Positions 3,929-37,548 of a stretch of 64,000 nt of DNA are shown one piece after another. The notes under the pieces are model-generated. The model saw only the letters and a list, made by a program, of their open reading frames with translations, searched no databases and was not told the DNA's origin. The stretch's first letter is position 1, and the number at the start of each line of letters is the position of its first letter. A program made the translations under genes and the position numbers. The DNA comes from Synergistales bacterium (GTDB lineage Bacteria; Synergistota; Synergistia; Synergistales; JAFGMB01), in assembly GCA_963666205.1 (NCBI GenBank), contig OY762654.1, positions 1,216,001 to 1,280,000 of the forward strand, read 5' to 3'.

Positions 3929-4003
3929 ACTTAAAGCCGTTAGATATTAATTACCAGGAAGACATATTCGGATAACTTCATAACACAAATGATAGGAATA
4001 ATA

Positions 4004-14046: not shown

Positions 14047-14107
14047 AACAGAACCTCCCTCGGTTTTTAAAACGACAGAACCATCGTGAAGTGTTCATAT
14101 TTCTTTT

Positions 14108-14563: not shown

Positions 14564-14652
14564 TTGCCGAGAAACCCCGTTTCTCTGTTTTATCTTCGGA
14601 TAATGAAAAGGTTATTCACCATGTTGACCTACAAGTGAACAGATTGGCCCAG

Positions 14653-16053: not shown

Positions 16054-16450
16054 AGGGAACCTCCCCGGCTATTTCCTTTTTGAAAGTATGTTCATCTCTA
16101 TTCTAAATATATAGTTGATTTCAGTTATTACAATAGGAATATTATCAGGTATTTGATAGGGTCTGGCCTATGGAATAAGGTCTATCCCTTCCTTTTGATG
16201 ATCAGATCATGGAGAATATATTCACTCCGGGAAAAAAGACTGGTACCAGTTCTTTCCTGCCTTTCAGGATATATCCCTTAAAACCTGCCATTATGGCAGG
16301 AAAAGGAAATATTGAAGTGACTGTAGGGACCTTTACGATCAGAGGTTCATGATGGGCATGGCTGCCAGCGGAGCCGGCAACCATGCTGGGATCTCATTTC
16401 GGGAAAAAGGCTGTTTAATATAGCAGGCATTGCGGTCATAAAAGGATAAG

Positions 16451-17704: not shown

Positions 17705-17877
17705 TCTGCAACCTCCGACTTATTAGTGTACATAACACAAAAACATAATTCATTACATCCTTCAGTATCTCTCCGTAAAGATTCTCCCCTATTTGACTGA
17801 ATATATGCAAACCTTATTTGTCTCAGTATATCCATGTTAACAATCGGTTATTCAAGAATATATATGTATTTCATGGA

Positions 17878-19035: not shown

Positions 19036-19185
19036 AACAGATTACCTCCCCGGTAAAACCAGATTTCAAATTGATAGATACTGTTTTGAAGTATTAAGAT
19101 AATAAGAGGGATGATGAATAATCTCTTACAACAAAGCATGAACGGCCGTGAATAATAGAGATCATGAATATAAACCACTTAAACT

Positions 19186-19202
19186 GTTTTACTATGTAAA
19201 AC
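19186..19202. promoter_or_regulatory. Palindromic operator candidate
   Basis: GTTTTACTATGTAAAAC; its 15-bp core matches 20662-20676 in reverse complement. Confidence 0.55.
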
Positions 19203-19327
19203 TTTATTTTATTTTTAGCCACAAACCATACTATCATAATCCATTTTTTAGTCAATCAGTTCCTTCTATTGTCAGTTTATCAACAAATCAGCCACCCTAT
19301 TTGATGAAGTGTTCAGGATAAGAGATT

Positions 19328-21713: not shown

Positions 21714-21841
21714 GCATTTCTTACAGGACAGATCGTGACTTTCAGCCCCCCCTGATGTCACGGCAATAACATACAGTCAGAGAGAATAAACAGTTCCAGG
21801 GGGGCATATCTGTGCCCCCCTGACCCCCCGGAGGATTTCCA

Positions 21842-23152
21842 GTGAATAAAGAAAACAAGATACTCCTTTTTATGGTAATGTCGCTATTTTTTACATACCT
21901 TCCATGGTACAGTTTTTCTGGAGTTTCCAACCTGATCACTGCAGAATTAGGCCTTAACACAACTCAACTGGGCTATATTCTTTCTTCCTTTCAGGTGGGG
22001 TATATAATAACCGTCCTCGTTACAGGTTTCCTTGCAGATTTATTCAGACCCAGAGCAGTAGTGCTTTTCGCTTCCCTGGGAACAGCTCTGACAGCAACCC
22101 TTTTTCCATTTCTGGCAAAGGGATTTTTGTCCGTCCTGATGTTGAGACTCCTGGTCGGATTATTTTCCGGAGCCATATATGCTCCGGGAATGGCCCTTCT
22201 CTCTTCCTGGTTTCCCCCGGATAAACGGGGAAAAGCCATAGGAGCCTACACGGCCGGCCTTACATTCTCCTATGCAGGAGGATATTTCATAGCATCACCC
22301 CTTGCCAGTGTTCTGGGATGGCGTACAGGAATGATGTGTTGTGCCATACCAGCTTTTCTGTCCGTGTTCCTGATCTATTTTTTCGTTTCTGACGGGATCC
22401 TCGAAAATGATTCGCCGGATAGCTGCCAGGAGAGTTCCAGGTCTGAACCGAATATGCCGGCACCTGCCCCAGAGGGCGGATTCTCCGGCCCTGCAGTTCT
22501 AACTTTCGGCTATATGGGGCATATGTGGGAACTTTATGCTTTCTGGGGATGGATCGGCCCCTTCCTTGTAGCCAACTTTGTACATGCCGGATTCCCCTTA
22601 AGCAGAGCTGTTTCTTTGGGAGGAGTAGGTGCTTCCATGGCCATCGCAGCCGGCGCCATAGGAGTATGGATGGCAGGTTCTATTTCTGACCGGATGGGAC
22701 GCATAAAAGTTATAATAGCAGCTTCTTTATGCAGCATCCTGGGGAATGGGATCTATGGTTTTACCTTTGGAAAGGGACTGGCAACAGTTGCATTACTTGG
22801 AATATGGATAGGATTCTGGTCCATCGCGGATTCTGGAATTTACAAGGCAGCCCTGACGGAGATGACCCGACCAAGGATCCGGAGTACGGCATTGGGGATC
22901 CAGTCAGCCATTGGCTATCTGCCAACAGTAGTAGCGCCTGTCGTTTTCGGGAAATTACTTCAGATCTATAATCCTGGTATAAAGGAAGTGAGTAATGCCA
23001 CTAACTGGAGCATGTCCTTCCTGGTTCTCGGTATAGGAGCACTTGTCGCACCTCTTGCCATGTTGTGGCTTCTGCGGATACCCCAGTCAATATTGATCAA
23101 CCATAAGCCTGATCGAAACATCACCGGAGGAAACGGGCCAGCCGAACGTTAA
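21842..23152 (+). CDS. MFS transporter
   Basis: About 12 hydrophobic segments; GFLADLFRPR and SISDRMGR motif-A-like loops; WFPPDKRGKAIG. Confidence 0.9.
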   Translation: MNKENKILLFMVMSLFFTYLPWYSFSGVSNLITAELGLNTTQLGYILSSFQVGYIITVLVTGFLADLFRPRAVVLFASLGTALTATLFPFLAKGFLSVLMLRLLVGLFSGAIYAPGMALLSSWFPPDKRGKAIGAYTAGLTFSYAGGYFIASPLASVLGWRTGMMCCAIPAFLSVFLIYFFVSDGILENDSPDSCQESSRSEPNMPAPAPEGGFSGPAVLTFGYMGHMWELYAFWGWIGPFLVANFVHAGFPLSRAVSLGGVGASMAIAAGAIGVWMAGSISDRMGRIKVIIAASLCSILGNGIYGFTFGKGLATVALLGIWIGFWSIADSGIYKAALTEMTRPRIRSTALGIQSAIGYLPTVVAPVVFGKLLQIYNPGIKEVSNATNWSMSFLVLGIGALVAPLAMLWLLRIPQSILINHKPDRNITGGNGPAER

Positions 23153-23214
23153 CATCATTTGATACCCTTATTGCATGTGATAGATCATCTGATCTACTTT
23201 ACATCCTGGACATT

Positions 23215-23640
23215 TTATGAATTGAATGCCATTAATATCTCTACATGTCCTGTATGAATATCAATTTGTTCTTTTATCATTTTAAATCCGCATTTTTTAT
23301 AAAACTCGATACTATCACGATTTTCCTTATACACGGTAAGATTCAAGTTCTTGCTGACTTCCTTCGACTTATCAACAAGCTGTTTGCCAATACCCTTTCC
23401 CTGTTCCTTCGGGGAGACAAAGATCGCGGCCAAGGTTTCTCCGCATAAAGCAACAAAGCCTTTAATCATTCCATCTTCCTCAAATACGAAGATTTCGCTT
23501 CCAGGTAAATAGATTTCACGCATGTCAATAACTTTTGATTCCCAAAACCCTTTTTCTATAAAATTGTGTGCCTTTATTGAGGCTTCAAGCCAAATGCTCA
23601 AAATCTGATCTATATCGGGCTTTTGGTAAGCACGAATCAT
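23215..23640 (-). CDS. GNAT N-acetyltransferase (YjaB/YiaC-like)
   Basis: AHNFI..FW, IFVSPKEQGKGIGKQL, VYKEN..FYKKCGF. Confidence 0.9.
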   Translation of the reverse strand: MIRAYQKPDIDQILSIWLEASIKAHNFIEKGFWESKVIDMREIYLPGSEIFVFEEDGMIKGFVALCGETLAAIFVSPKEQGKGIGKQLVDKSKEVSKNLNLTVYKENRDSIEFYKKCGFKMIKEQIDIHTGHVEILMAFNS

Positions 23641-23672
23641 CCCTTATCTCCTAGTATATTATTGGGGAAATG

Positions 23673-23770
23673 TATCTGCGGAATAAACTCAACTATATAT
23701 AACGTTGGCATCACGTGATGTACTTATTGTATATTACAAATCCTATCCTATCTTTATTAACATAGGATAT
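23673..23770. repeat. Full copy of the two-armed intergenic repeat
   Basis: 23673-23713 is identical (41 bp) to 34458-34498; 23723-23770 matches 35176-35223 at 46/48. Confidence 0.9.
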
Positions 23771-23997
23771 TCAACTGTTTTTCCCCGCATTTCAAATGGA
23801 CCTAATACAGGGAACAGGCCACTTGAATACTTTTTCTGGGTCCTTATGGGTATTGAGATTGTTTCGGACTCAATTGATTTTGCGATCTAGTGAGTTGAGA
23901 TTGGTATGGCCTAAAATCAAGCTAATGAAATAAAGAAGTTCAGTAAGGGTTGAATGTTATAACAATATATAGAAAGTACCAGCATGAAACACTTCTT

Positions 23998-24309
23998 TTA
24001 TTGTTCAGCATCATTTTCTCTCTGATTCTTCTTTTTATAAATCATGGAAATATTAATCATTGCGTACCAGATTACTCCGACTAGCAATGGCTGAATTCGA
24101 TTTGAATTACCTATCGCAAAAGAAGCTCCCAAAGCTGCAAACATAGCAATAAAAATATGAAAAAGACGGATAAGAATTATTTGATGGTTCAATTTAGATA
24201 TAATTTTTTCAAAAATCCAGAATAAACATAGTGCTATTGCTCCAAATGGCAAAGACCCTCCAAATGCATAAATCAGGACATCAGAAAACTGTTTCATAGT
24301 AATACGCAC
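23998..24309 (-). CDS. Small hypothetical membrane protein (about 3 TM)
   Basis: AAGGAG RBS, hydrophobic segments, AT-rich. Confidence 0.55.
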   Translation of the reverse strand: MRITMKQFSDVLIYAFGGSLPFGAIALCLFWIFEKIISKLNHQIILIRLFHIFIAMFAALGASFAIGNSNRIQPLLVGVIWYAMINISMIYKKKNQRENDAEQ

Positions 24310-24580
24310 TCCTTAAGAACAAAGCCTGATCTCAACAGAAACATTAAGAACATTCCTTGATCTTATCTATAATAGTACCAATCAAGGACCCTGCCACAAA
24401 ACCTATTAGTCCAGATTTATAACTACTCCCTTCAAAATTGACCATTCCTCCAAGAATAGCACCTAATACAGCACATTTGGTCATCCAATTATTTTTGATT
24501 CCAAACAATGTTCTCCCTCATTTCATACTATATCTGTTCTACAATAGAATATTGCATATACACAAATATAGAACGCTTTG

Positions 24581-24615
24581 AAAAAGAGTGCGGGGTTAGC
24601 TTTCACCCCGCACTC
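24581..24615 (-). terminator. Intrinsic terminator after atoE
   Basis: gagtgcggggt/accccgcactc stem with a T-run on the minus strand. Confidence 0.75.
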
Positions 24616-24670
24616 AAAAGTTCGGTTACATACATACGTAAGTGTGTTGTCCTTAAAGTATAACAATACT

Positions 24671-25996
24671 TTATATGAGTAAAAATACGGCAGAACAAAT
24701 AATCCCTGCCAGAATAGCAACCATTACACAATATCCCATTATGTCCCTTACACTCAGATTTGCAATGGCCAATAGAGGAAGTGCCCAGAACGGCTGAATC
24801 TGGTTCGTCCAGGAATCTCCCCAGCAAAGGGCCATAGCGACTTTTGCAGAAGACACCCCTAGTGCGTGTCCTGCTGGAACCATGATAGGACCTTGCACCG
24901 CCCATTGCCCTCCGCCTGACGGAACAAATAAGTTAACAAGTCCTGCACTTAAAAAGGTGTATAGGGGGAATGTCCTGGCAGTAGAAATACTGACAAACCA
25001 GTTTGACATCCACTCGGCAAGACCTGATGTTCTCATCATTCCCATTATTCCTGCATAGAAGGGGAACTGGAGAGCAATGCCACCTGCGGCCTTTATGGCA
25101 TTGTTGATTGACTCCATATACCTTCTCGGGGACTTATATGCAAAGATTCCAAGGGTGAGGAAAATTAATATCACTATATCAAGGGTCAAACTAAACCCTT
25201 TAGTCATAAAGTGATTAACAATTACTACTGAGCCTGCTATTCCAAGAAGTAAGGAGAGAATGAGACTATTATCCAGTTTCTTAGCTGGTGAATCAGACAC
25301 TTCAGCCATGATTGGTTTCTCATCTGCAAACATATTTGGATCAACCTCAAGGATGAGGTCTCCTTTTTCTTCCCGGGGATACATGAAAATGTACAGAAGG
25401 GGAATAGCGATCAAAAGAGTCAAGCTCAAGATAATGTTCCAAGAACTGTAAAGAGTTTCGGTAACCGGAACAATTCCAATAATATCTTCAAGGAAATGCT
25501 TAGGTGTCGCTATAACCAGAGGGATACTTGAAGAAGGACCGCGCATCAGATTTCCGCTATAAGCCGCCGCTACGATAATCGGATAGTGCAATTTCTTGCC
25601 ATAATCTTTCTTCGCTAATTCTTTTGCTACCAAAGCTCCTGCAATCAAACCGAATGCCCAGCTTAAATAACTGCACAGAGCAGCCAATGTAGCGATGAAC
25701 CATACAGCCTGAACAGGACTTTTAGGAATTCCCGTAAGAGCTTTAAGGCCTTTATGTACAATCGGAGAATTGGCCAGAGCATGTCCTGTTATCAGAACAA
25801 ATATCATCTGCATGGTGAACTTATACAGACTGAAGAATCCCTTTCCCCAGTATTGGGTCATTTCCATTGGGCTTTTATGCATAATCCCCATACCCATTAG
25901 AAAAACAATAATACTCAAAATAATAGCAAAGGTAAACGGCTGAGGAAGCCAACGTCTCACAAGTCTGACAAAAAAGTTTGTCATAGCTCTAATCAC
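24671..25996 (-). CDS. atoE: Short-chain fatty acid transporter (AtoE)
   Basis: HYPIIVAAAYSG, QFPFYAGIMG, FVPSGGGQWAVQGP, QPFWALP. Confidence 0.92.
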   Translation of the reverse strand: MIRAMTNFFVRLVRRWLPQPFTFAIILSIIVFLMGMGIMHKSPMEMTQYWGKGFFSLYKFTMQMIFVLITGHALANSPIVHKGLKALTGIPKSPVQAVWFIATLAALCSYLSWAFGLIAGALVAKELAKKDYGKKLHYPIIVAAAYSGNLMRGPSSSIPLVIATPKHFLEDIIGIVPVTETLYSSWNIILSLTLLIAIPLLYIFMYPREEKGDLILEVDPNMFADEKPIMAEVSDSPAKKLDNSLILSLLLGIAGSVVIVNHFMTKGFSLTLDIVILIFLTLGIFAYKSPRRYMESINNAIKAAGGIALQFPFYAGIMGMMRTSGLAEWMSNWFVSISTARTFPLYTFLSAGLVNLFVPSGGGQWAVQGPIMVPAGHALGVSSAKVAMALCWGDSWTNQIQPFWALPLLAIANLSVRDIMGYCVMVAILAGIICSAVFLLI

Positions 25997-26122
25997 ATTA
26001 ATCCACCTCCAGATATCTTAATGTTCAACCCAAAACTTCTTATCAAGTTAAACCTATATGAAATATTTCACCTCCTACCGGCTCTTATTCTTAATGCTCA
26101 AACATCGAGAATCGCAAATCTC

Positions 26123-26806
26123 TTACACTTCCATCTTGCAAAGGTTTTCAGAAACCTTAAACTTCGCTTCAGTTACCTCTATTAATTCTTCCAATGATAT
26201 TTCCGGTGCAATTTCTTCAAGATATAGTTCTTCATCCCTGAATCTAAATAGACCAAACTCAGTCACAACCACGTCTACTTCTCCAAAACCGGTAATGGGA
26301 AGCGAACACTCCTTCACTATTTTGGATGTTCCCTTCTTGGTAATATGCTGCATGGCTACGTAAACCTTTTTGGCTCCTGTAACCAGGTCCATTGCCCCAC
26401 CAACACCCAACTGTTTTCCGTTCGGGATTATCCAGTTAGCAATATTAGCTTTTTCATCGACCTCGAAAGCTCCAATAACAGTTGCATCTATATGGCCTCC
26501 TCGGATCATCCCAAAAGACATGCTACTATCAAAATAACAACAGCCCTTTGTTTCAGTAATAGCTATCCGCCCCGCATTAATCAGGAGACAATCCTTTTCT
26601 TCTTCACAGGCAGCTGGACCAACACCCAACATTCCATTTTCGGCCTGAAGAAAAACTCTGTTGCTCTCTATATAGTCTGCTATCATAGTAGGTATTCCCA
26701 CTCCAAGATTGATAAACAGATCCTTCTGCTCACTCTGAGCTGTGAATTCCATTGCAATCCTTTTTGCAATTCTTTTTTTTGCTAATTCACTATCTAACGT
26801 TTTCAA
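26123..26806 (-). CDS. atoA: 3-oxoacid/acetoacetate CoA-transferase beta subunit
   Basis: NLGVGIPT, QAENG (catalytic Glu), IRGGHID, GGAMDL; start set at TTG after RBS. Confidence 0.88.
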   Translation of the reverse strand: MKTLDSELAKKRIAKRIAMEFTAQSEQKDLFINLGVGIPTMIADYIESNRVFLQAENGMLGVGPAACEEEKDCLLINAGRIAITETKGCCYFDSSMSFGMIRGGHIDATVIGAFEVDEKANIANWIIPNGKQLGVGGAMDLVTGAKKVYVAMQHITKKGTSKIVKECSLPITGFGEVDVVVTEFGLFRFRDEELYLEEIAPEISLEELIEVTEAKFKVSENLCKMEV

Positions 26807-26811
26807 CCTGT

Positions 26812-27483
26812 TCACCCCCTTAAAACCATTACATCTACAAAAAGATGTGGCGTGACAACACATTCAGGATCAAGCTCTCCTCTGGGAACAAGTTCTCCAA
26901 CTTCAGCAATCACAAGATCTGCCGCCATTGCCATTATTGGATTAAAGTTCCTGGCTGTTTTGTAATAAGAGAGATTACCTAACTCATCAGCCTTTAGTGC
27001 TGAGATAAGAGCAACATCTGCATGGACAGCCTTTTGAAGCAAGTATTCCCTTCCATTGAATATCTTGGTCTCTTTCTTTTGCCCCAGTTCTGTTCCAACT
27101 GCTGTCGGAGTATAAAAAGCGGCAACTCCTACTCCAGCCGCTCGTATCGCTTCTGCAAGAGTTCCCTGGGGGATGAGGTCAACATCGATTTTCCCCGAGT
27201 TATAAGCTTCTGCGACTTCCGGATTCCAGTTGTAATATGTACCGATTAAACCCTTTACCTTACCAGCAGTCAGCAATCTACCTAGCCCCACATTAGGAGA
27301 ACCCAAGTCATTACTTATGATCGTCAGATCACCAATATCAAGTTCACAAAGGGCATCTATCAACATTTTAGGGTCCCCTGAATTCCCAAAACCGCTTATC
27401 ATGATGCTTGATCCAGATTTGATCATCTTCATTGCTTCATTAAGTGATTTAAGTTTTGGACATTTGGAATCAATAGAGGGCAT
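26812..27483 (-). CDS. atoD: 3-oxoacid/acetoacetate CoA-transferase alpha subunit
   Basis: PQGTLAEAIRAAG, KADELGNL, ARNFNP. Confidence 0.88.
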   Translation of the reverse strand: MPSIDSKCPKLKSLNEAMKMIKSGSSIMISGFGNSGDPKMLIDALCELDIGDLTIISNDLGSPNVGLGRLLTAGKVKGLIGTYYNWNPEVAEAYNSGKIDVDLIPQGTLAEAIRAAGVGVAAFYTPTAVGTELGQKKETKIFNGREYLLQKAVHADVALISALKADELGNLSYYKTARNFNPIMAMAADLVIAEVGELVPRGELDPECVVTPHLFVDVMVLRG

Positions 27484-27519
27484 ATATATCTCTCCTTGTC
27501 GATAAAATGATTTACAGGT

Positions 27520-28713
27520 CTAAAACCGCTCATATATTGTTGCCATGCCCAAGCCACCAGCAATACATATAGTAGCCAGACCATACCTGACATGGCGTTT
27601 TTTCATTTCATGAAGCAGAGTCACTGTGATCCTGTTGCCAGAACAACCAAGGGGATGCCCTAGAGCTATGGCACCACCATTAACATTTGTTATTTCCTGA
27701 TTCAGACCCAACTCTTTTATACAGGCCAGGCTTTGTGCGGCAAAAGCTTCATTAAGTTCGATCAAGCCAATATCTTCCAGCTTTAGCCCAGACCTACTCA
27801 AAGCCTTCTGTGTAGCAGGAACTGGCCCTATACCCATGTACCGAGGGTCTACCCCAGATGCAGTACCCACAACAAATCGTGCCATTGGTTCTAAACCGGA
27901 TTTTTTTAGCATAGTTTCTGACATCAGGAGAACAGCAGAGGCCCCATCGTTTCTTCCTGAACTGCTTCCTGCAGTCACTGTCCCATCAGATTTGAAAGCT
28001 GGCTTTAGCTTTGCCATTTTCTCTATAGAAACATCTCTTCGTGGAAATTCATCTACTTTAAATTCAATGGGATCACCTTTTTTTTGTGGGATGAGGACAG
28101 GCACTGTTTCATCCTCAAATTTACCTTCATCAATTGCCTGAACCGCTCTCTTTTGGCTTGTAAAAGAAAACATATCCTGCTCTTCTCTTGAGATGCTGTA
28201 CTTTTCAGCAAGATTTTCTGCAGTCATACCCATTATCAGATGTCCATATTTATCTTCAGGCTGTGAACGAGGCTGACTTTCAGTATTAGGATCTAATAGG
28301 AGACCATTCCCAGCTTTATAACCAAATCTTGCTTTTCTTAAATAAAACGGAGCTGTACTCATACTCTCAACTCCACCAGCAATAACTACATCAGAGTATC
28401 CAGTCATGATCTGCAAAGCACCATTTACGATTGACTGCATTCCGGATGCACATTGCCTATGGACAGTATAAGCGGGCATTTCTTCAGGAAAACCTGCCAT
28501 TAACGAAGCCAACCTGGCAATATTGGGACAGTCCGTAGACTGCTTTGCTTGTCCCAGAATGACCTCATCGACCATACCGCTCTCAATGGAGACTTTCTCA
28601 AGCACGCCAGAAATAACAACCCTTGCTAACTCCTCTGCCGGGATATTCTGTAAGGCCCCTCCTAATTTCCCTCCTGCAGTACGAACAGCAGAAACAACAT
28701 ACACACTCTCCAC
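27520..28713 (-). CDS. atoB: Acetyl-CoA C-acetyltransferase (thiolase)
   Basis: CASG, NEAFAAQ, GHPLG, CIAGG. Confidence 0.92.
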   Translation of the reverse strand: MESVYVVSAVRTAGGKLGGALQNIPAEELARVVISGVLEKVSIESGMVDEVILGQAKQSTDCPNIARLASLMAGFPEEMPAYTVHRQCASGMQSIVNGALQIMTGYSDVVIAGGVESMSTAPFYLRKARFGYKAGNGLLLDPNTESQPRSQPEDKYGHLIMGMTAENLAEKYSISREEQDMFSFTSQKRAVQAIDEGKFEDETVPVLIPQKKGDPIEFKVDEFPRRDVSIEKMAKLKPAFKSDGTVTAGSSSGRNDGASAVLLMSETMLKKSGLEPMARFVVGTASGVDPRYMGIGPVPATQKALSRSGLKLEDIGLIELNEAFAAQSLACIKELGLNQEITNVNGGAIALGHPLGCSGNRITVTLLHEMKKRHVRYGLATICIAGGLGMATIYERF

Positions 28714-29160
28714 GACAACACCCCCGAATGAAATCTATAATGCCAGCAGAATAAGATACCTTTTTACTGAAATATTAGAATTGAAGATATATTTAGAGTC
28801 TTGCATGAAATCTTGCATCCCCCATAAAATGCGGTTGAAATATTCCATTCATTCGCATTATAAAACAGAATGTGTAAGAATTCCAGAGAGAATGTCCAGT
28901 AAGAGATTTTGTTATTTTTCTTTTCTATATCCCTATGAATTATTTTGGTGGGTGCTACAGAATTGAGATACTGCTCTGAACATTATCTTGGGATACATAC
29001 TATGTCTTTTATTTCGATTTCAAACATCGAAAAACAGCATAGGAGAGTTACTCGTTCCAATTGTATGGGAGAGATTGAGAGTAATTTATTAAGATGGGTT
29101 TTAATAGTTCTCCATGAAAGACATTGCTTTTGAAAAGCAAAAATCCTTTAATGATAGAAA

Positions 29161-30036
29161 TTACACGATAGGAGGCGTCTTCCTTTTCCAACCAACATAA
29201 ATTTCTTCCTGATCCCAGATCTCTTCAAAGTCTTTCAAGGTGTCCTGTCCTTCCTTCCCGAATTTTCTCACCACCGATACTATCAGAGCATTCAAGATGC
29301 TCATTGTGGGCGTAAGAGAAATAACAAATGAGACCGGGGGAGCTTGAACTACCAGCGGAATATCAGATGCCATTGCAACAGGAGAAGTGAGGCTGTTTGT
29401 TATTGATGCCGTCTTTATCCCAATCGAATGAGCATACTCCAATAAACGTACTGTCGCCCTTGAGAATCTACCAGTACATATGCCAATCAAAAGGGGGTTT
29501 TGAGTTTTGTTTTTCGCCTTTAAGAGCCTTTCAAAGGCAAAATCTTTATCCAAAAGATTAATTGCCGGAAGAAACCACGAGAGGTACATATTAAGAAAAT
29601 AAGCAGTGGCATAACTGCCTCTGCTGGCGACAATATATACAGCATCAGATTTTATCAAAGCATCGGCTATGCTATCTAATGCTTTATAATCCAGATTAGT
29701 AATTGTATTTAACAATGCTTCATTATCGTCCATCAGAATTTTAGTAGTTACATCATCCTTTCCAGCAGAGCTGATGTAAGTATTGTGTTCCTCAAAGGGG
29801 GTACATAGTTTAATCAATGACTCCTGGATGGAGCTTCTCATGGCAGGGTAACCATCATACCCAAGAGCTAAAGCGAATCTTACAACAGTAGATTCACTTA
29901 TCCCAACTCTTTTGGCTAATTCAGCAGCAGTAAGGAATGCAACTTCATTCATTCTTTCAAGGATATACTCGGCTATTTCTAAATGTGATGCCGATAGTTC
30001 CGGTAGTTTAGACATTATGCGATCTTTGACCATCAA
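29161..30036 (-). CDS. MurR/RpiR family transcriptional regulator
   Basis: ELAKRVGISESTVVRFALALGYDGY HTH plus SIS domain. Confidence 0.9.
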   Translation of the reverse strand: MMVKDRIMSKLPELSASHLEIAEYILERMNEVAFLTAAELAKRVGISESTVVRFALALGYDGYPAMRSSIQESLIKLCTPFEEHNTYISSAGKDDVTTKILMDDNEALLNTITNLDYKALDSIADALIKSDAVYIVASRGSYATAYFLNMYLSWFLPAINLLDKDFAFERLLKAKNKTQNPLLIGICTGRFSRATVRLLEYAHSIGIKTASITNSLTSPVAMASDIPLVVQAPPVSFVISLTPTMSILNALIVSVVRKFGKEGQDTLKDFEEIWDQEEIYVGWKRKTPPIV

Positions 30037-30534
30037 TAATCTCCTTTAACTCAATTGATTAAAAACTCTTCTATCGATTAAAACCAGACTTTTACGCTTA
30101 TAGTTATTTCCCATATATAAGCTTGTTATTATCACACACTATTACTAACTATTGCTGATTATACAAGATTCCTCTCTGCATACGAAGTAAATCAACATAC
30201 ATCCCGTGAAAACCCTTGACATAATCTCTTGCTAAAGAGGGTGAAAAATATTTTATTATGTACATATACTTGAATCATAGAAAAAATTGCAGCAAAGACG
30301 TTATCTGGACTTAGGATACATATCAATAGGCGGGATTCGCTACTCCCCTGTTATTTAATCGTTTACTATCATTAAAAAATTTTAATTAAGTTATTAAAAT
30401 CAATTCATAGCAATTGTATGAACATGACTTACCTGATACAAAACAAGCAAACTGTCTATGCCCCAAAAGAAGACACCTGTAATACATTCACAGGCATCTC
30501 CTTTTGAGGAAATATTCTCTTGCCATATAAGCAA

Positions 30535-31713
30535 TTAGCGCTTTATTACAATGGAGACGCCTTGCCCTCCTCCGATACAGGCAGTGGCCAAACCCAATTC
30601 AAGGTCACGATTTTTCAAAGCATATATAAGGGTGGTTAGGATTTTCGCACCAGTTGCTCCTACAGGATGACCCAAAGCTATAGCACCGCCATAAATATTG
30701 CATTTCTCCATATCAAAAGGCATTTTCCTGTTTACGGCCAGAACTTGTGCTGCAAATGCTTCATTTAATTCAATTAAATCCATGTCATCCAGGTTTAAAC
30801 CGGCTTTATCAAGTGCCTTTGGAGTGGATATAACGGGCCCCAGACCAAAATATCGTGCATCTAAAGCACCACTGGCATAACCAATAATTTTCGCCAGAAT
30901 CGTGTACCCTTGAGAACGGGCCCAGTCTTCATCTGCCACAATAATGGCACAACCTGCATCACATAGCGCCGAACTACTTCCAGCTGTGATAGTACCATTT
31001 TCTTTAAATATAGCTGGCAATTTACTCAGTTTTTCAAGACTAGTATCCCTTCTAGGTATTTCATCAGTATCAAATATTACGTCACCCTTTTTCCGGTCTT
31101 TAATAGTAACTGGAATGATTTCATCCTGAAAATTTCCGTTATCAATAGCGTCAATTGCTCGGAGGTGACTTCTCAGGGTAAATTCATCCTGTTCCTGCCT
31201 TGATATATGAAAGTCTTCAACTAGCTGTTCCGTCGCTGTACCCATTATCACATTCGATATCGGACAAATAAATCCATCCCTATGCAAGGCATCTGGAACA
31301 CGTTTTTCTCCCATCCTATGTCCCCATCTGGCATCAGGCAGCAAATACGGAACATTCGAAGCACTTTCCATGCCTCCTGCTACAATAACCTTTGAGTCTC
31401 CTAATCTAATCTTGTCTGCTGCTAACATCACAGACTTGATACCAGACCCACATCTCTTGTTAATGCTGAAGGCTGGAATACTCTGAGGAAGACCCGCCCG
31501 GTAGAGCGCTATTCTAGCCGGATTAGCTCCTACTCCAGCCTGCCAGCCAATACCAAGGATGACTTCATCGATATCCTCGTAACTTACACCACTTCTTTTT
31601 ATTGCTTCAGAAACGGCATATGCGCCAAGATCAGAAGCATCAAAAGGTTTTAAACTCCCTCCAAATTTCCCACCTGGAGTCCTACAGGCACTTATAATTA
31701 CCGGGTTTCCCAT
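30535..31713 (-). CDS. Acetyl-CoA C-acetyltransferase (thiolase), second paralog
   Basis: CGSG, NEAFAAQ, GHPVGATG, CIGGGQG. Confidence 0.92.
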   Translation of the reverse strand: MGNPVIISACRTPGGKFGGSLKPFDASDLGAYAVSEAIKRSGVSYEDIDEVILGIGWQAGVGANPARIALYRAGLPQSIPAFSINKRCGSGIKSVMLAADKIRLGDSKVIVAGGMESASNVPYLLPDARWGHRMGEKRVPDALHRDGFICPISNVIMGTATEQLVEDFHISRQEQDEFTLRSHLRAIDAIDNGNFQDEIIPVTIKDRKKGDVIFDTDEIPRRDTSLEKLSKLPAIFKENGTITAGSSSALCDAGCAIIVADEDWARSQGYTILAKIIGYASGALDARYFGLGPVISTPKALDKAGLNLDDMDLIELNEAFAAQVLAVNRKMPFDMEKCNIYGGAIALGHPVGATGAKILTTLIYALKNRDLELGLATACIGGGQGVSIVIKR

Positions 31714-31745
31714 AAATTAGCCCCTCCTAGAAAATGTATTCTCCT

Positions 31746-32420
31746 TTAGTCAATCCCTTCCATAGTGGACAGGGCATCGGAAACGGTAAATTCAGCAGTA
31801 ACATTATTTGTAATATCTTCTACCGTTACCTCTGGAGCAAGTTCACAAAGGGATAAAGTCCCTTCATTAACCCTGAAAAGACAATACTCTGTCACAATAG
31901 TGTCTACGACACCAACCCCTGTCAGGGGCAGGGTGCATTTCTTAAGGATTTTGGGTTCACCTTTTTTAGTTAGCAAAGTAGTCGCTATGATAACCCTTTT
32001 CGCTCCTGTCACCAGGTCCATAGCCCCTCCCATGCCCGGGATAATCTTGCCTGGTATCCACCAATTAGCGATATTGCCATACTGGTCTACTTGAAGTGTC
32101 CCAAGAACAGTGGCGCTGAGATGTCCTCCCCGGATCAGCCCAAAACTAAAATCACTTGCAATAAGTGATGCTCCGGGGAGCAATGTGAGGCACCTTCCCC
32201 CAGCCCCTATGAATCTCAAATCTTCAGTTGCGGGTTTTGGACCAGCCCCTATAACTCCGTTTTCTGCCTGAAACACAATACTGATATCATCAGGAATATA
32301 GTCTGACACCAGGGTAGGTATACCAATTCCCAGATTAACTACTGAACCATCCTCAAGATCAAGAGCAATCCTTTTTGCAATTCTATGCCGTACCTGTTCT
32401 TCATCAAGTGCGCTCAGCAT
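31746..32420 (-). CDS. CoA-transferase beta subunit, second paralog
   Basis: NLGIGIPT, QAENG, IRGGH, GMGGAMDL. Confidence 0.9.
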   Translation of the reverse strand: MLSALDEEQVRHRIAKRIALDLEDGSVVNLGIGIPTLVSDYIPDDISIVFQAENGVIGAGPKPATEDLRFIGAGGRCLTLLPGASLIASDFSFGLIRGGHLSATVLGTLQVDQYGNIANWWIPGKIIPGMGGAMDLVTGAKRVIIATTLLTKKGEPKILKKCTLPLTGVGVVDTIVTEYCLFRVNEGTLSLCELAPEVTVEDITNNVTAEFTVSDALSTMEGID

Positions 32421-33093
32421 AATATGAATCCCCCTTCATAACTACAAAATCCACAAGTATACCTGGAGTAATAATTTCGTTGGGATCCAATTCACCCAAT
32501 TCGACAACTTCATCCACTTCTGCGATAACAATATCGGCAGCTGTAGCCATAGCAGGATTAAAGTTTCTGTTAGTACCAAAATAAGTCAGGTTGCCTGCTT
32601 TATCAGCCTTATGGGCCTTTACTAGTGCCACATGGGCCCGTAGCGGCAATTCAAGAATATATTTCTTTCCTTCTATTTCAAGGACTTGTTTACCTTCCTC
32701 ATGAACAGTCCCCACACCAGTTGGGGTAAGGATTCCACCCAATCCAAAACCACCTGCTCTTATCCTCTCAACAAAAGTTCCTTGTGGTACCAATTCAAGC
32801 TCGATCTTTCCTTCATTAAAAAGCTTACCTGTAATTTTATTGAGCCCAACATGTGATGCGATCACTTTTGCAACCTGCCCATTTGCGACAAGCTTCCCAT
32901 GACCTACATCCTCATAGAGAGTATCGTTCGCAATAAGGGTGATATCCCTTACCCCACTTTCAATAAGAGCATCAACAAGGGTATAGGGAACCCCACCGTA
33001 ATTGAAGCCTCCTACCATTACCCTTGACCCATCTTTAATATGACTTACACTCTCTTCAGGTGCAACTATAGGTTTCATGCGAATGGAAACCAC
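32404..33093 (-). CDS. CoA-transferase alpha subunit, second paralog
   Basis: PQGTFVERIRAGG, ADKAGNL, RNFNP; GTG start after AAGGAGG. Confidence 0.88.
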   Translation of the reverse strand: MVSIRMKPIVAPEESVSHIKDGSRVMVGGFNYGGVPYTLVDALIESGVRDITLIANDTLYEDVGHGKLVANGQVAKVIASHVGLNKITGKLFNEGKIELELVPQGTFVERIRAGGFGLGGILTPTGVGTVHEEGKQVLEIEGKKYILELPLRAHVALVKAHKADKAGNLTYFGTNRNFNPAMATAADIVIAEVDEVVELGELDPNEIITPGILVDFVVMKGDSYYAERT

Positions 33094-33462
33094 CGTGCAA
33101 TCCCTCCTTTCAAAACATGAAATCGAAGATTTAACCAGTAAGCACAAGATTCTGAATTAGATGAATAAATGGAGCTTATCTTGCATTAGAATATCACTAT
33201 GCAAGGATTCTTGCAAGATTGCTTTTTATTGCTTTTGACAGGTATTTCTCTTCAACAACAATTTTGTGATGGTGGTAGAGATAAAAAATAGTGTGATCCG
33301 TAAAGGCGATAAGAGAGGATTTTATGGAATCAAGAGGAGAGTTTTCCAAAAATAAGGATACGATCAGATATTCCGATAACAGATCGTTTTTCTGAAAATA
33401 TAAATATCCTGACTCTCTAAATCAGGTTAGCTGAAATCTATTGTTAAAAAGACCGTGATAAC

Positions 33463-34035
33463 TTAGTCCCAGTAACCGATAACGTTATTTCTTCGTTCAG
33501 GACGACCAGGTTTTGAATTCAAATCTGAATATCCCAGGCAAACACAGTAATATGGTTTATAGCCTGTTGGAATTGGAATATCCGACATTTTCTCAGGATA
33601 CGCAAATAAATATTGCACAAAACCGATCCAACAGGAAGCAATTCCGAGGCTAAAAGCTGCCAGAAGCATATTCTGAATTGCTGCGGAGCATTCTGCAATA
33701 GGACCGAAATTCCCATTTGGATTTGATGTCACTTCATCCCCAGATACAATTACAATAGTTGGGGCACTATGGAGCACCTTATATTTCGGATTATTACCAA
33801 GTATCACTGCTCTCGGAATTTTGCTTTCCAACATACATTTCTTAATCCTCTGATCAAGATCCTCAATTTTCTCTTTATCCTGAATGACTAAAAAATTCCA
33901 CCTCTGCAAATTATGTCCACTAGGGGCATAAATTGCTGCATCCAAAATTGCCTCAAGTTTTTCGTCTTCAATTTGTCTTCGTTGATATTGCCTTATACTT
34001 CTGCGGTCTTTAATTGCATCAATAATAGGGTTCAT
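33463..34035 (-). CDS. Nitroreductase family protein
   Basis: RRSIR, APSGHNLQ, QNMLLAA..GIASCWIG. Confidence 0.9.
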   Translation of the reverse strand: MNPIIDAIKDRRSIRQYQRRQIEDEKLEAILDAAIYAPSGHNLQRWNFLVIQDKEKIEDLDQRIKKCMLESKIPRAVILGNNPKYKVLHSAPTIVIVSGDEVTSNPNGNFGPIAECSAAIQNMLLAAFSLGIASCWIGFVQYLFAYPEKMSDIPIPTGYKPYYCVCLGYSDLNSKPGRPERRNNVIGYWD

Positions 34036-34437
34036 TGATCACACACTTCCTTCCTCTGATCATTTTAGAAGCTATGAGAGAAATGCCACAGAACATATGA
34101 GAATATTGTTGCATATCCTTATCTCTATCATGCAATACTAATTGACCCCGCCCCCCAAACGAACTTTTTCCAAATGCTAATACATTATTACAACTTCTTA
34201 AGTAAAATCACCATTGAATCAACAATCAGGCTCATCAAGATACAAACACATAATTCTTCAGCAAAATAACAGGATAGGACGCTATTTCCGTCATACCCTG
34301 TTATTTTTACCTCATCGAACCGAAGGTCCGAATCAATTGTATTTTAGTATATCATTTGACTTTCTCATGTTTCAGATGGATCACTTTGGGGGGAATTAAT
34401 GTTTCGACTATTACTCTCAAAATTTCCAGAAGGTCTA

Positions 34438-34514
34438 TTTTATTCCAGGAAAAGATCTATCTGCGGAATAAACTCAACTATATATAACGTTGGCATCATG
34501 TTATGTCCTTATTG
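34438..34514. repeat. Copy of the two-armed repeat
   Basis: 41-bp exact match to 23673-23713; left arm colinear with 36636-36688. Confidence 0.9.
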
Positions 34515-34647
34515 ATTACGATGTATTGCCTCCTATATCCATCAATCCGGGTATCAGTCAAATTTTTCATATTTCAAGGCTTTCTGTTAAGCCCCCATAA
34601 GAAACATAGCCGATGTTTTCGTTCTTTGAGCTTCTCAACCGGAGAGC

Positions 34648-35115
34648 TTAATCACTGATGTCGTCCAACTGAAAGGAGATGATCTTTCGCAACTCGGAAA
34701 GTGACAGCTCTACCTGATAACCGATTTTTCCGGCACTGAAAATGATCGTTTCCAACATTTCTGCGCTGCTGTCGATCGTGGTATGGAAAAACTTTTTCAT
34801 GCCAATAGGGGAACAGCCGCCATGAACATACCCGGTAAGAGGCTGGAGTTCTTTTGCTTTCAACATATCAATTTTCTTTTCCCCCACAGCTTTTGCTGCT
34901 TTTTTTAAATTCAGATCTTTGCTGACAGGAACCACAAACACGTAGTATTTTTTAGAGGCGCTTACCGCTACAAGGGTCTTAAACACCTGGTCGGGATCCT
35001 GATGGAGCACCGAAGCCACATCCATTCCGCTGACTGCATCTGTATCAGCATAACAGTGGCTTTCATAATTAATTTTCTTTTGCTCCAATAGCCGCATTAC
35101 ATTTGTTTTTTCCAT
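34648..35115 (-). CDS. ybaK: Cys-tRNA(Pro) deacylase YbaK
   Basis: KTNVMRLL, VFKTLV, TGYVHGGCSPIG, SAGKIG. Confidence 0.92.
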   Translation of the reverse strand: MEKTNVMRLLEQKKINYESHCYADTDAVSGMDVASVLHQDPDQVFKTLVAVSASKKYYVFVVPVSKDLNLKKAAKAVGEKKIDMLKAKELQPLTGYVHGGCSPIGMKKFFHTTIDSSAEMLETIIFSAGKIGYQVELSLSELRKIISFQLDDISD

Positions 35116-35133
35116 AACTGCTCTCCAACTTCA

Positions 35134-35254
35134 GAATAAATTAAACTATTTATAATATTAACATCATGCGATGCCCTTATTGTATATGACAAATCGTATC
35201 CTATCTTTATTAACATAGGATATACAGCTGGTTTTCTCGAACTACAAATAGACC
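35134..35254. repeat. Copy of the two-armed repeat with degenerate core (AATAT)
   Basis: aactatttataatattaacatcatg...tatcctatctttattaacataggata. Confidence 0.85.
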
Positions 35255-35362
35255 ATTTGAGAAAACCAGGTCAATATACTGTCAATCTTGATAGCAGATT
35301 CTTCAGTCACCCTCCAAATCAATCAGGTAATATAGAAGCAGATCTTTTCCTATTTCAAACAT

Positions 35363-36430
35363 TTAATCGATCAGAAATTGGAAAATTACAGGTAGTAATG
35401 TCAACACGCTGACAAGGCGTACTGTGTGCAGAACGCTTACCACCAGGGGGTCGGCTCCAACCTCATCGGCGATCATGCTCATCTGGGTCAGTCCTGCTGG
35501 CGATGAGGCTAGAAGACAGGTGCTGTAGTTCCAGTTAGTTATGCGGTAGAGGATCAGACTGAGGAGTATCCCCGAGAGGATCATTACAATGGCCAGGATC
35601 GAAACAGGGACTAACAATCCAGAAAGCATCATCATTGTTTCCCTTGTAATTTCCTGCGAGATGGCCAGCCCAACCCCGATTCGTGCCAGGATACGCAGAT
35701 TCGAGTGGACTCGGGTAAAATTACCCCAAATGACATTGCAGACCCCCACGGCAAACATGGACCCTAAAAGATCTCCCACTGGAATCCCAAGGATACGACC
35801 GGTCAATCCTCCTGCAATAGCGGTTACAGCAAGTCTGATAGCACCAATATAGCCGTTATTTCCAGTTTCAGTCTCTTTTAGATCCGTTATATGCTCTGGA
35901 AGGGGGATCTCTTCCTCAGGATCACGTCTTGACTCGACACCGCGGGCGATAAAGGGCATAAAGATCAGGAAGAAAACCACCCGGAAAAGTTGGAGAAAGG
36001 TAATACTGACCTGATCCTCCCCCAGAGAAATGCCTAATAGAGCCATTTCCGTAAGCCCTCCGGTACTCGACCCAAGGAGAGCTGTTCCAAGAGAAAGACG
36101 GGTTACCCATGAAAGCAGAAAGCCTGAACTGATAGAAAGGATCAGCATCCAGAGGGATACAAGGATCGCTGGCAGGAGGATTTTCCTCATTTCCCTCAGT
36201 GTAGACCTGTTGACTTTCAAGCCAATAAAGCTTCCGATCACTAATTTTGAGACAAAGGTGATCTCATTCGTGGGAAAGGCTAAATGCAAACCAAACATAC
36301 CTATGACTGAGCCCATAAAAAGGGCCCCCAACATGTCGGGTGCCGGGAAGCGCAAAAAAACGAAGAGCTTCCAGCCTAAGATTCCCATAAAGAAAAGTCC
36401 GAACATACCGGTAAGGATTCCGCCGTCCAT
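35363..36430 (-). CDS. AbrB-family (duplicated-domain) membrane protein
   Basis: Internal duplication with GGLTEM..QLFRV and PAGLTQM..HTVRL; start set at MDGGIL. Confidence 0.82.
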   Translation of the reverse strand: MDGGILTGMFGLFFMGILGWKLFVFLRFPAPDMLGALFMGSVIGMFGLHLAFPTNEITFVSKLVIGSFIGLKVNRSTLREMRKILLPAILVSLWMLILSISSGFLLSWVTRLSLGTALLGSSTGGLTEMALLGISLGEDQVSITFLQLFRVVFFLIFMPFIARGVESRRDPEEEIPLPEHITDLKETETGNNGYIGAIRLAVTAIAGGLTGRILGIPVGDLLGSMFAVGVCNVIWGNFTRVHSNLRILARIGVGLAISQEITRETMMMLSGLLVPVSILAIVMILSGILLSLILYRITNWNYSTCLLASSPAGLTQMSMIADEVGADPLVVSVLHTVRLVSVLTLLPVIFQFLID

Positions 36431-36789
36431 ATACTCTACTCTTTCACTCTGCTGGAGTGGCATCAGGTCTCTCCAGCTGGAATTGTTATCAGGATTTTGA
36501 CAGATGCTATTTGGGGATGTCCCTGTTCCCCGAAAAATAGTCCAGTTGGGATGTGACAAAGTTGCAAAAACCGGGCATATTGAAAAGGAAGATCAATGCT
36601 TCAACCATTACTTCTAATGATTCTAAAAGTTGCTTTTTTATTCCAGGAAAGGATGTACCCGTGAAATAACGAAAACTATTTATAACGTCGTGGAAGAGGA
36701 CATCTTAAAGGAAACAACGAAACAGTATAGAGGTACTTCACATAAAAGACCTCTGGATTAACCACGGGATTGATCCTGTACTCAATGGA

Positions 36790-37548
36790 TCAGGAAAGCC
36801 TGATATTCATATCCTTTACAGAAGCCACGACCTGACCCACAAGTTTCAGTTCCTCGTCGCTTCCCTCTTTATAGCGGAATCTGGGGAATGTCAGGCTTAC
36901 AGCCGCTACCGGCGCTCCGAATGAAAAGAGGGGAACGGCTATACATGCCAGTCCGGTCATGCATTCTTCATTATCCAAGGCATAACCGCGTTTTCGAACT
37001 TCCTTAAGTTCCTTTAGAAGGTCATCCAGTGAACTTATTGTTTTTTCGGTAAATCTGATGAAGGCCTCTTTTTCAAAGAAGCTTTTAACTTCACTTTCAG
37101 GCATATGGGCCAGCATAGCCTTTCCTACCCCAACGCTGTAGGCAGGAAAGGTTTTACCGATCTCCACATTTACCCTTATAGTATTTCTGGATTCAACCTG
37201 ATCTATGTATTGGACCTTTGCCCCTTCAAGGACAGCAAGGTGAACAGATTCACCTGTATCCTCAGAAAGGCTCTCCATGTAAGGCCGTACCTGGGAAATA
37301 AGACTCTGATTCCTGTCCTTTTCCCTGCCTATCTGGGAAAACTTGAAGGTCAGGCTATATTGTTTATTAGAAAGATCCTGCTGAACATAACCCAGAGAAC
37401 AGAGCGTGGCGAGAAACCTGTATACCGTACTCTTGTTCATATTCAGTTCTTCACTCAGATTCAAGATGCTCTGTTCTCCATTTTTCGAGAGATATTCTAT
37501 TATGGCAAATGCCTTATGGAGGGATATATTTTCTTTCATTGTCGTCAT
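36790..37548 (-). CDS. IclR family transcriptional regulator
   Basis: KSTVYRFLATL HTH; GESVHLA; GKAMLA; RGYALDNEE. Confidence 0.93.
   Translation of the reverse strand: MTTMKENISLHKAFAIIEYLSKNGEQSILNLSEELNMNKSTVYRFLATLCSLGYVQQDLSNKQYSLTFKFSQIGREKDRNQSLISQVRPYMESLSEDTGESVHLAVLEGAKVQYIDQVESRNTIRVNVEIGKTFPAYSVGVGKAMLAHMPESEVKSFFEKEAFIRFTEKTISSLDDLLKELKEVRKRGYALDNEECMTGLACIAVPLFSFGAPVAAVSLTFPRFRYKEGSDEELKLVGQVVASVKDMNIRLS

Follow-up and report, generated by a model that had tools for sequence, protein, structure and literature searches.

By which route do groups of accessory genes come to be lined up between two conserved chromosomal genes, each group preceded by the same intergenic sequence? 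The question is raised by a locus of a Synergistales bacterium that lies in a 64,000-nt stretch of contig OY762654.1 (assembly GCA_963666205.1, positions 1,216,001 to 1,280,000 of the forward strand; hereafter the window). Here, a gene for a transporter of the major facilitator superfamily (MFS) and a gene for an IclR-family regulator enclose four gene modules, referred to as the GNAT, 10.8-kb, ybaK, and AbrB modules, which are bounded by copies of one intergenic repeat family with the central sequence AACGT. An initial annotation had read the locus as a recombinase-free array built up by successive site-specific integration of cassette-like modules. According to the present analysis, the repeat-delimited, lineage-restricted module array is real, and module polymorphism is almost certainly located at the repeat units, the shell of which is very probably derived from an insertion sequence (IS) of the IS3 family. 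As to the mechanism, our tentative reading is that an IS3-derived, probably promoter-bearing unit marks the module boundaries, that the array records conservative recombination at the palindromic centre of this unit, and that its current turnover proceeds by homologous recombination. In the following, the window's genome is labelled G000; G001 is a genome of the same genus, G003 belongs to a genus designated g3, and G002 to another genus, while L013, L034, and L046 denote contigs or loci.

The repeat family comprises three full and two half copies (Table 1). The cores of the full copies are found at 23701-23705, 34486-34490, and 35154-35158, the last one reading AATAT. At the left end of the array, AACGT (23145-23149) is followed by a right arm without any left arm before it, and at the right end a left arm alone terminates in AACGT (36684-36688). 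The array begins directly on the stop codon of the conserved MFS gene, the last two codons and the stop of which (GAA CGT TAA) overlap the first core, with the TAA being made up by core and right arm together. Identity among the site copies is 70-83%, and positions 23673-23713 equal 34458-34498 exactly, this 41-bp stretch being the maximal exact block. When the window is searched with a profile of the three full copies, the five places are all recovered, and no other noteworthy match is obtained. Chance is excluded as an explanation, since three typed pieces of 23-26 nt match the window twice each, against 0.00 matches expected from 100 shuffles. All copies in G000, G001, and L034 are in a single orientation, with no alternation.

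Beyond the locus, BLASTN-short searches of the whole 2,948,783-bp genome with five 161-nt pieces revealed no convincing copy, and R1, a sequence-only covariance model built from an alignment (A2) of seven full sites, finds just the five local copies in G000. With no copy outside the locus in this genome, the repeat is not an ordinary dispersed miniature inverted-repeat transposable element (MITE) or promoter motif. The coordinates and the two-armed anatomy given in the initial annotation, as well as the 41-bp identity, are borne out by the repeat, profile, and sequence checks; a palindrome, TATCCTAT-N10-ATAGGATA, which had been ascribed to the right arm in general, is present in two of the three full copies only, is missing from the third, and is not retained in the same-genus orthologue of the 35154 site.

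A finding new to this analysis is that the two arms and the core form the inner part of a larger unit of ~280 bp, which is bounded by terminal repeats of an IS3-family IS. From left to right, the unit consists of an IS3-type left terminal repeat, an orfA leader, the left arm, the palindromic AACGTT(AG), the right arm, and an inverted IS3-type terminal repeat. Matches to IS termini are found in the DNA that separates the 36684 left arm from the AbrB gene, and likewise at the far ends of several right arms. With a hidden Markov model (HMM) built from three such termini, left IS ends were located 164-170 nt left of the core (window ~36519; G001 2058, 7955, and 16619; and an extra G001 locus) and right IS ends 112-116 nt right of it (window 23820, G001 2337, and, weakly, 15369), the outer ends facing away from the core in every case. 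The complete 280-bp unit is represented by L013 reverse-complement 2058-2337 of G001 (TGACCTGC...GCAGGTCA). The leader beside the left terminus retains the ribosome-binding site and the ATG of orfA; the left arm of ~90 nt, the core, and the right arm of ~70 nt are unrelated to the IS.

The same termini (TGACCTGC...) bound 1.24-kb elements in G001 and G003 that contain overlapping orfA and orfB reading frames with HTH_Tnp_1 and rve domains, an architecture which we take to be that of the IS3 family; G000 contains a decayed IS copy (rve, rve_3) and a 279-bp mini-IS (HTH_Tnp_1). Thus, as in an IS3-type miniature element, the terminal inverted repeats of the unit match an autonomous IS of the same genomes. 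An orfB query finds matches in G000, G001, and G003 and none in G002 or G004, and these three of the five genomes of the family are those that contain sites; this co-occurrence fits a derivation of the unit from the IS, albeit five related genomes are no test of it. The homology of the AbrB and ybaK modules between genera begins at window positions 35270 and 34606, that is, +112 and +116 from the respective cores, which coincides with the outer right end of the unit. At the extra G001 locus, a half-unit precedes a glgE-like gene, and the DNA immediately beyond its IS terminus has 92% identity to G000, the counterpart of which contains neither the unit nor the upstream 4.8-kb ABC-transporter operon. 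Two further features of the IS family were encountered. The mini-IS (genome 654182-654460) is composed of an IS3-type left end, the first 56 orfA codons (HTH_Tnp_1), and a right end, with CCAT on both sides (4-bp duplication). To the left of the 34486 site, at 34300-34400, a fragment resembling the IS right-end region (...TTTGACTTTCTCATGTTTCAGATGGATCACTTTGGGGGG) is fused to the leader part of the unit, which hints at unit-to-unit recombination.

Evidence for module exchange at the units comes from relatives. The MFS gene is followed directly by the IclR gene in G003, in G002, and in the metagenome locus L046, where the flanks occur without the array; L046 is the one close relative (74%) among the 19 loci obtained in a metagenome scan with the MFS protein, the orthologues of which in G001, G003, and G002 are 89%, 78%, and 76% identical. 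In G001, both halves are kept, the right one adjoining the stop of the MFS gene and the left one lying towards IclR, and the cargo between them differs. The order there is MFS; a 142-aa protein; IclR-DctPQM-amidohydrolase; IclR, M20 peptidase, and DctPQM running into GNAT; ybaK; AbrB; and IclR, with four full sites (L013 reverse-complement 2222, 8125, 14586, and 15259) and two half sites, the halves being ordered as in G000. The 10.8-kb block is absent from G001, since GNAT and ybaK are parted there by one site. In G003, contig L034 has the order GNAT, site, AbrB, site, a group of IclR, RraA-like, and TctCBA genes, and a left half that adjoins a DUF169 gene; on another contig ybaK is placed between two sites, and the MFS-IclR interval itself is empty. 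In this genome site copies are found on three contigs; G001 has the one half-unit outside its array and G000 none.

Sequencing runs add to this picture. A contig of 3,693 nt from run X1 joins 21812-23669 to 34455-36290, skipping exactly 10,785 bp; 11 of the 1,858 and 8 of the 1,836 aligned nt differ (~99.5% identical), and stretches that were uncovered in runs X1 and X2 were not counted as evidence. In run X7, in which 88% of the sampled words are found and which may represent the source sample, contig depth is 9.66-10.5 in the 10.8-kb block (window 23684-34005) against 21.6-26.4 around it, and no bridging contig is listed; this difference, contig depth being a weak measure, could fit a population mixed for the block. 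A contig of run X5 (~92-98% identity) joins 23151, at the MFS-side core, to 23652 on opposite strands and is probably the GNAT module inverted at the two palindromic cores; by arithmetic, 56 letters lie between. Taken together, presence and absence of modules and their reordering, and probably an inversion, are seen at the repeats in relatives, in agreement with the breakpoints at the cores that had been anticipated for relatives.

The carriers, three genomes and a few metagenome contigs, all belong to one small family. Across the order, R1 finds sites in three of 41 genomes (G000, G001, and G003) and in none of the other nine families; across the phylum sample, which overlaps the order set in part, 2 of 151 genomes are positive. 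A pattern that fits all seven genus sites matched, among 185,579 species genomes, only the G001 contig (four matches) and, once, a Holdemania metagenome-assembled genome (MAG); the latter match, with 10.9 bits, is considered chance. Two pattern scans of viral contigs gave five stretches and one stretch, respectively, which were likewise treated as chance, because their R1 scores of 9.9-23.8 bits come from the pattern-specified part only. A distant BLASTN search of a plasmid collection with one site gave no match.

Two observations on the relatives may be added. Three right arms of G001 (L013 reverse-complement 1375, 2222, and 8125) resemble one another more closely than the arm beside MFS resembles the arm at the equivalent position in the window's genome, which points to gene conversion between copies or to a recent arrival, one after another, from a single source. 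In L046, positions 13360-19857 are 98% identical over 6.5 kb to genome positions 2119442-2112945, adjacent core genes being just 68-74% identical, and this stretch looks like a recently exchanged mobile element.

The units have a fixed relation to the genes they precede. The left arm of every copy, including that of the extra G001 half-unit, faces the start of the adjoining gene or operon, and several of these operons start with an IclR regulator. The block that is best conserved in the two genera reads GTTATAAATAGT on the gene strand, a TATAAAT box directly downstream of the core, and start codons follow the core after 38 nt (ybaK) and about 60 nt (GNAT). No convincing -35 sequence is found next to TATAAAT. 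Because the conserved box adjoins the core on the gene strand, a promoter role is probable enough to be entertained, and whether the unit would indeed supply a promoter is judged from sequence to be evenly balanced.

With regard to mechanism, the joints at which half-units meet other DNA are of interest. On the MFS side, similarity to the unit ends immediately to the left of AACGTT, and on the IclR side it breaks off behind AACGT; at the extra G001 locus it extends through AACGTTAG (followed by G), on L034 of G003 through AACATTAGC (followed by C), and at the ybaK site of G003 to about 10 nt past the core. Four or five independent joints between half-units and foreign DNA are thus placed within ~10 nt of the centre of the 280-bp unit, which sustains the attL/attR-like pattern of the initial annotation; an overlap of ~7-8 nt (AACGTTAG) fits all of them but one (AACGTCGT). 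The ends of the array are permuted halves, the right half coming first, at the MFS stop, and the left half last, on the IclR side, which fits the product expected of a circle opened at its centre.

In the scenario that is proposed here, copies of the ~280-bp unit, lying in one orientation before the first gene of each accessory module, would mark where modules have been gained, lost, and reordered in this family. Circles consisting of one unit and its genes would have been opened in the middle of that unit and then linked to the chromosome at a short match. This would be conservative recombination at the core, catalyzed by an enzyme encoded away from the locus, and it is postulated because the split halves at the array ends fit circles opened at the centre. 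For the turnover seen at present, such as presence or absence of the 10.8-kb block, homologous recombination between copies would suffice. That a site-specific step occurred at the core is possible, the chances being put a little short of even.

What might have catalyzed such a step was sought among the recombinases of these genomes. No recombinase gene is found in or near the array (1.239-1.253 Mb of the genome), and six Phage_integrase matches and one Resolvase match lie far away, at 0.198, 2.526, and 2.75-2.80 Mb, so that the locus is rightly called recombinase-free; according to Pfam, the modules of G000, G001, and G003 do not contain a recombinase either. Tyrosine recombinase matches number 6, 10, 3, 2, and 2 in G000 to G004, and Resolvase matches 1, 1, 0, 0, and 0. 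All three site-bearing genomes share only a pair of Xer-like tyrosine recombinases of ~300 aa, these being the two that are found, without a resolvase, in G003 (86%-complete MAG of 270 contigs). The trans-acting, possibly tyrosine-type, recombinase of the initial annotation has therefore no counterpart common to the site-bearing genomes except this universal pair. A transposase of the IS110 type (DEDD) was not found in G000 or G001. IS3-family transposases are known to act at the termini of an element and not at its centre, so that for a centre-specific step no catalyst has been found; they could move whole units or unit-bounded composites. The enzyme for the central step may be lost, host-encoded, or nonexistent. 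Y1 transposases are present in all five genomes of the family, and one of them was rejected as a candidate: a 289-aa protein with Y1_Tnp and a C-terminal HTH, encoded beside the G003 array (L034 ~1293-2308) and inserted in the GNAT 3' end, belongs to a separate element with its own inverted repeats of ~35 bp (GGTCAGGTCTT...TTTTTGTGCTACAA). Homologues of this protein that are 49-50% identical are encoded at genome positions 1556566-1557420 and 1642331-1643185.

Several observations weigh against recombination at the core as proposed above. The ends of similarity are found at 0, +3, +4, and +10 and not at one position, and the 36684 end may not be a pure joint of left arm and chromosome, because the ~20 nt to its right (GAAGAGGACATCTT...) recur after the ybaK left arm of G003. 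Off the core, site 23701 is a three-part mosaic with switches at ~-28 and ~+18, in G001 the joint found downstream of GNAT is placed ~27-37 nt into the right arm, and right arms elsewhere are truncated at ~+35 (L034 4135-4209) and ~+60 (G001 site 8125). At the borders of the recent 10.8-kb event, the sequences are exactly identical over 41 bp and 95% identical over 57 bp; since near-identity of this length suffices for homologous recombination, the event gives no evidence for a site-specific step. No recombinase specific to the three site-bearing genomes was found, G003 being 86% complete, and no site copy adjoins an integrase in G000 by BLASTN-short or R1, there being no copy outside the locus. 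The complete 280-bp unit is not flanked by a target-site duplication, a scan with the sigma-70 consensus found 34 matches where 37.0 were expected from shuffles, and the carriers are few. An unoccupied attB was sought at the nucleotide level in G003, G002, and L046 and was not found, because these represent other genera, the intergenic DNA of which is not alignable to the joined G000 flank. Circle joints, finally, were not seen in the Logan contigs of four runs; this says nothing either way, because contigs break at the sites.

Much of this would be accommodated by the main rival, an explanation without any dedicated cassette system, which is considered unlikely, albeit by no means far-fetched. 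According to it, the unit is an IS3-derived miniature element, possibly a mobile promoter, that was seeded before accessory operons by the IS3-family transposase in trans, and modules differ through homologous recombination, gene conversion, and IS-mediated or illegitimate rearrangement, the central breaks reflecting selection for the -10 box and leader, or chance. The IS termini at fixed distances, the existence of a complete unit, the occurrence of intact IS copies only in site-bearing genomes, and the precise IS-terminus boundary at the G001 glgE locus agree with it, and so do the fixed orientation to genes with the conserved TATAAAT, the identity over 41-57 bp at the sole recent event, the mosaic sites, off-core joints, and variously truncated right arms, and the failure to find a recombinase. 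However, joints between half-units and unrelated DNA cannot arise by homologous recombination, and four or five of them are clustered within ~10 nt of the centre; the array ends are permuted halves, not whole units; and for the probable inversion of GNAT at the cores, the inverted homology of only 6-8 bp would not be enough. Nor is the unit dispersed in G000, which contains none outside the array, and its complete form lacks a target-site duplication. A classical tandem accretion, in which decayed integrative elements (cis-mobilizable elements, CIMEs) were integrated serially at the MFS 3' end by the tyrosine integrase of a lost integrative and conjugative element (ICE), integrative and mobilizable element (IME), or phage, the IS ends being incidental later insertions, is improbable. 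The array does display what such accretion would leave behind, namely modules flanked by core-sharing att-like sites, an attL-like and an attR-like half-site at its ends with internal att sites between, and, as its starting point, the 3' end of a conserved gene whose stop codon is overlapped by the shared core; the 70-83% likeness of the copies suggests old events. Yet no integrase-bearing autonomous relative with the same site specificity was found in G000, the 41 order relatives, the phylum sample of 151 genomes (partly overlapping), or the 185,579 species genomes. Decayed ICEs and IMEs are usually far larger than the one-gene modules of 0.55 and 0.67 kb, no module contains relics of integration or transfer genes, and the IS termini, which in several genomes recur at the same distances to either side, thereby appear to belong to the unit rather than to be incidental.

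Recombination by the host's own Xer-type enzymes, that is, by the two universal Xer-like recombinases on a dif-like sequence at the unit centre, as in the dif modules of Acinetobacter plasmids, is very improbable. It would draw on the only tyrosine recombinases present in all three site-bearing genomes, and module arrays without a linked recombinase are the hallmark of dif modules (PMC6449649, PMC13141974). By eye, though, the core region reveals no 11-6-11 dif-like dyad, its only conserved dyad being CATC-N4-GATG; the sites are in direct order and do not alternate, and G002 and G004 have the Xer pair without sites. A dif site at the terminus was also rejected, the locus being ~1.17 Mb and ~450 kb away from the GC-skew maximum (70 kb) and minimum (1.706 Mb), respectively. 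Hardly tenable is an integron remnant, that is, a cluster of attC sites without integrase (CALIN). The direct array of sites between mostly co-oriented genes, the two single-gene modules, and the absence of a nearby integrase are in its favor. The single-strand fold of an attC site is an imperfect palindrome in which the two ends pair (R''-L''/L'-R'). Single-strand folds of three sites on both strands, however, are no better than those of shuffles (z from -1.64 to +0.74), the RNAalifold consensus of seven sites is a 5-pair hairpin only (CATC-N4-GATG), and none of the boundary heptamers (GTTGGCA, GTTAACA, GTTAGCA, and ATTAACA) fits GTTRRRY, the consensus at integron cassette boundaries. Moreover, the presumed crossover lies a third into the site and not at its end, and, unlike integron cassettes, which are mostly single genes without promoters, modules reach 10.8 kb and contain their own regulators (RpiR in G000, leading IclR genes in the operons of G001 and G003). 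An integron was therefore rejected, in line with the initial remark that no canonical attC fold is visible. Avoidance of a restriction site does not explain the core either, AACGTT occurring 423 times against 403 expected. The cassette-like reading of the initial annotation is thus partly supported, namely by module polymorphism, half-site joints, and the start on a stop codon; it is not sustained with respect to a shared recombinase, and the only recent event is explicable by homologous recombination, breakpoints occur off the core, and the site lies inside an IS3 unit. The array is no integron, nor can it be called a demonstrated new recombination system.

The cargo assigned to the modules in the initial annotation is confirmed by Pfam (Table 1), and every module open reading frame (ORF) is on the minus strand, as had been stated for all cargo. 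Much of the cargo had also been described as looking AT-richer than the flanks; this is true of the GNAT, 10.8-kb, and ybaK modules, with GC contents of 0.359, 0.402, and 0.413, and not of the AbrB module (0.452), which is near the flanks (0.456-0.465; genome, 0.445). Probably, the true start of the AbrB-family gene lies further in than the listed TTG, since the latter overlaps the IS-end remnant. The hairpin with its T-rich tract right of the array was read by eye as the terminator of the IclR gene. Within the 10.8-kb block there are two diverged units of CoA-transferase A/B and thiolase genes (window 26123-28713 and 30535-33147), with repeat pairs 78-80% identical and ~5.63 kb apart. An Rfam search of 22500-37500 gave only a chance match to a miRNA model at 30454-30513. 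Elsewhere in the window, a single 1-kb bin (3001-4000) has a GC content of 0.545 and an AT skew of 0.33, well over its neighbours.

Table 1. Features of the module array and its chromosomal flanks (window coordinates).
Feature	Position	Strand	Evidence and remarks
MFS transporter gene, left chromosomal flank	21842..23152	+	Pfam MFS_1, E 7.8e-38
Right arm only (type C) with core AACGT(T), no left arm	23145..23190	+	HMM positions 62-107; R1 32.2 bits (model 52-122)
GNAT module: GNAT acetyltransferase	23215..23640	-	Pfam Acetyltransf_7/1/10; start codon 10 nt from left arm
Full site: left arm, AACGTT 23701-23706, right arm type A with TATCCTAT-N10-ATAGGATA	23650..23783	+	146.8 bits
IS3-family terminal-repeat remnant, right-end type, outer end pointing off core (~116 nt away)	23784..23820	-	IS-end HMM, E 1.9e-6
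10.8-kb module cargo: short-chain fatty acid transporter, 2x CoA-transferase A/B + thiolase, RpiR, nitroreductase, 103-aa ORF without family	23998..34035	-	Pfam
Full site: left arm, AACGTT 34486-34491, right arm type B	34415..34605	+	137.8 bits
ybaK module: YbaK/ProX-type aminoacyl-tRNA editing domain protein	34648..35115	-	Pfam tRNA_edit, E 2.6e-25; start codon 38 nt from core
Full site: shortened left arm, degenerate core AATATT 35154-35159, right arm type A, decayed IS-end-like tail (...CCAGGTCA)	35116..35275	+	137.4 bits
AbrB module: AbrB-family membrane protein	35363..36559	-	Pfam AbrB, E 3e-59
IS3-family left-end remnant (outer end ~36519, reads towards core) and leader	36519..36632	+	BLASTN to IS end at genome 654182; HMM, E 4e-6
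Left arm only, AACGT at its end	36633..36688	+	
Right junction DNA: ~20-nt stretch, then hairpin with T-rich tract downstream of IclR gene	36689..36789		
IclR-family regulator gene, right chromosomal flank	36790..37548	-	Pfam IclR_C, E 3.5e-46

If the centre of the unit were a true recombination site, the locus would represent a gene-capture platform outside the integron, dif-module, and ICE-accretion families, and the recombination site itself would be movable by a resident IS. If, instead, homologous recombination between promoter-bearing miniature elements were at work, a clean natural case would be given of a small IS derivative that organises a hot spot of accessory genes. In either case, the interval between MFS and IclR offers a defined variable locus at which strains can be typed and module exchange can be tested in Acetomicrobium-type bacteria. 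Mobile elements of Synergistota are barely described, and a search, limited in extent and thus no proof that none exists, of the literature on integrons and gene cassettes in Acetomicrobium and Synergistetes found no description of this element. A bolder version of the proposal, rather unlikely in our estimation, would regard the unit as a mobile landing pad, in which an IS3-mobilisable shell carries an orientation-blind site (palindromic overlap AACGTT) that captures circular modules of any size and expresses them from the unit's own promoter, the enzyme being supplied by the host or by the IS. This would amount to an integron-like capture on double-stranded two-armed sites, without attC or linked integrase.

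Compared with known systems, the array shares with integron arrays and CALINs a directly repeated site between co-oriented genes, some of them single, a variable content, and the lack of a linked integrase; it is unlike them in its double-stranded two-armed site with central breakpoint, its large multi-operon modules with regulators, and the probable promoter at each site. IS-derived miniature elements and IS-bounded translocatable units of the IS26 type or flanked by MITEs are similar in that a small non-autonomous unit with the termini of a resident IS separates accessory segments, and a circle of one unit and a segment would give the pattern seen here; in contrast to these, the array terminates in half-units split in the middle and not in whole units, the unit seems restricted to module arrays, and its complete form lacks a target duplication. 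CIMEs are integrase-less elements in tandem with ICEs or IMEs, as exemplified by the ICESt1-related islands of Streptococcus thermophilus (PMC5704250). Tandem elements without integrase, att sites with a common core, the 3' end of a conserved gene as starting point, and half-sites at the ends with whole sites between are found there as well as here; peculiar to the present array are modules down to one 0.4-kb gene, the palindromic core, the location of the site inside IS3-type repeats facing the adjacent gene, and the failure to find an integrase-bearing relative. The dif modules (pdif, XerC/XerD) of Acinetobacter plasmids are also bounded by short sites and shuffled between contexts, their recombinase being provided in trans by the host, and IS targeting dif sites are dealt with in PMC10132070; unlike the 28-bp dif sites, the units of this array measure ~130-280 bp, stand in direct order on a chromosome, and by eye contain no dif-like dyad. 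Finally, the reuse of promoters, or mobile promoters, of prokaryotes, by which the same upstream sequence is placed before unrelated genes (PMC3575422), resembles the situation described here in that one upstream sequence fronts unrelated genes, whereas the copies of the IS3-derived unit also mark the boundaries of gene presence and absence and occur as permuted halves at the ends of the array.

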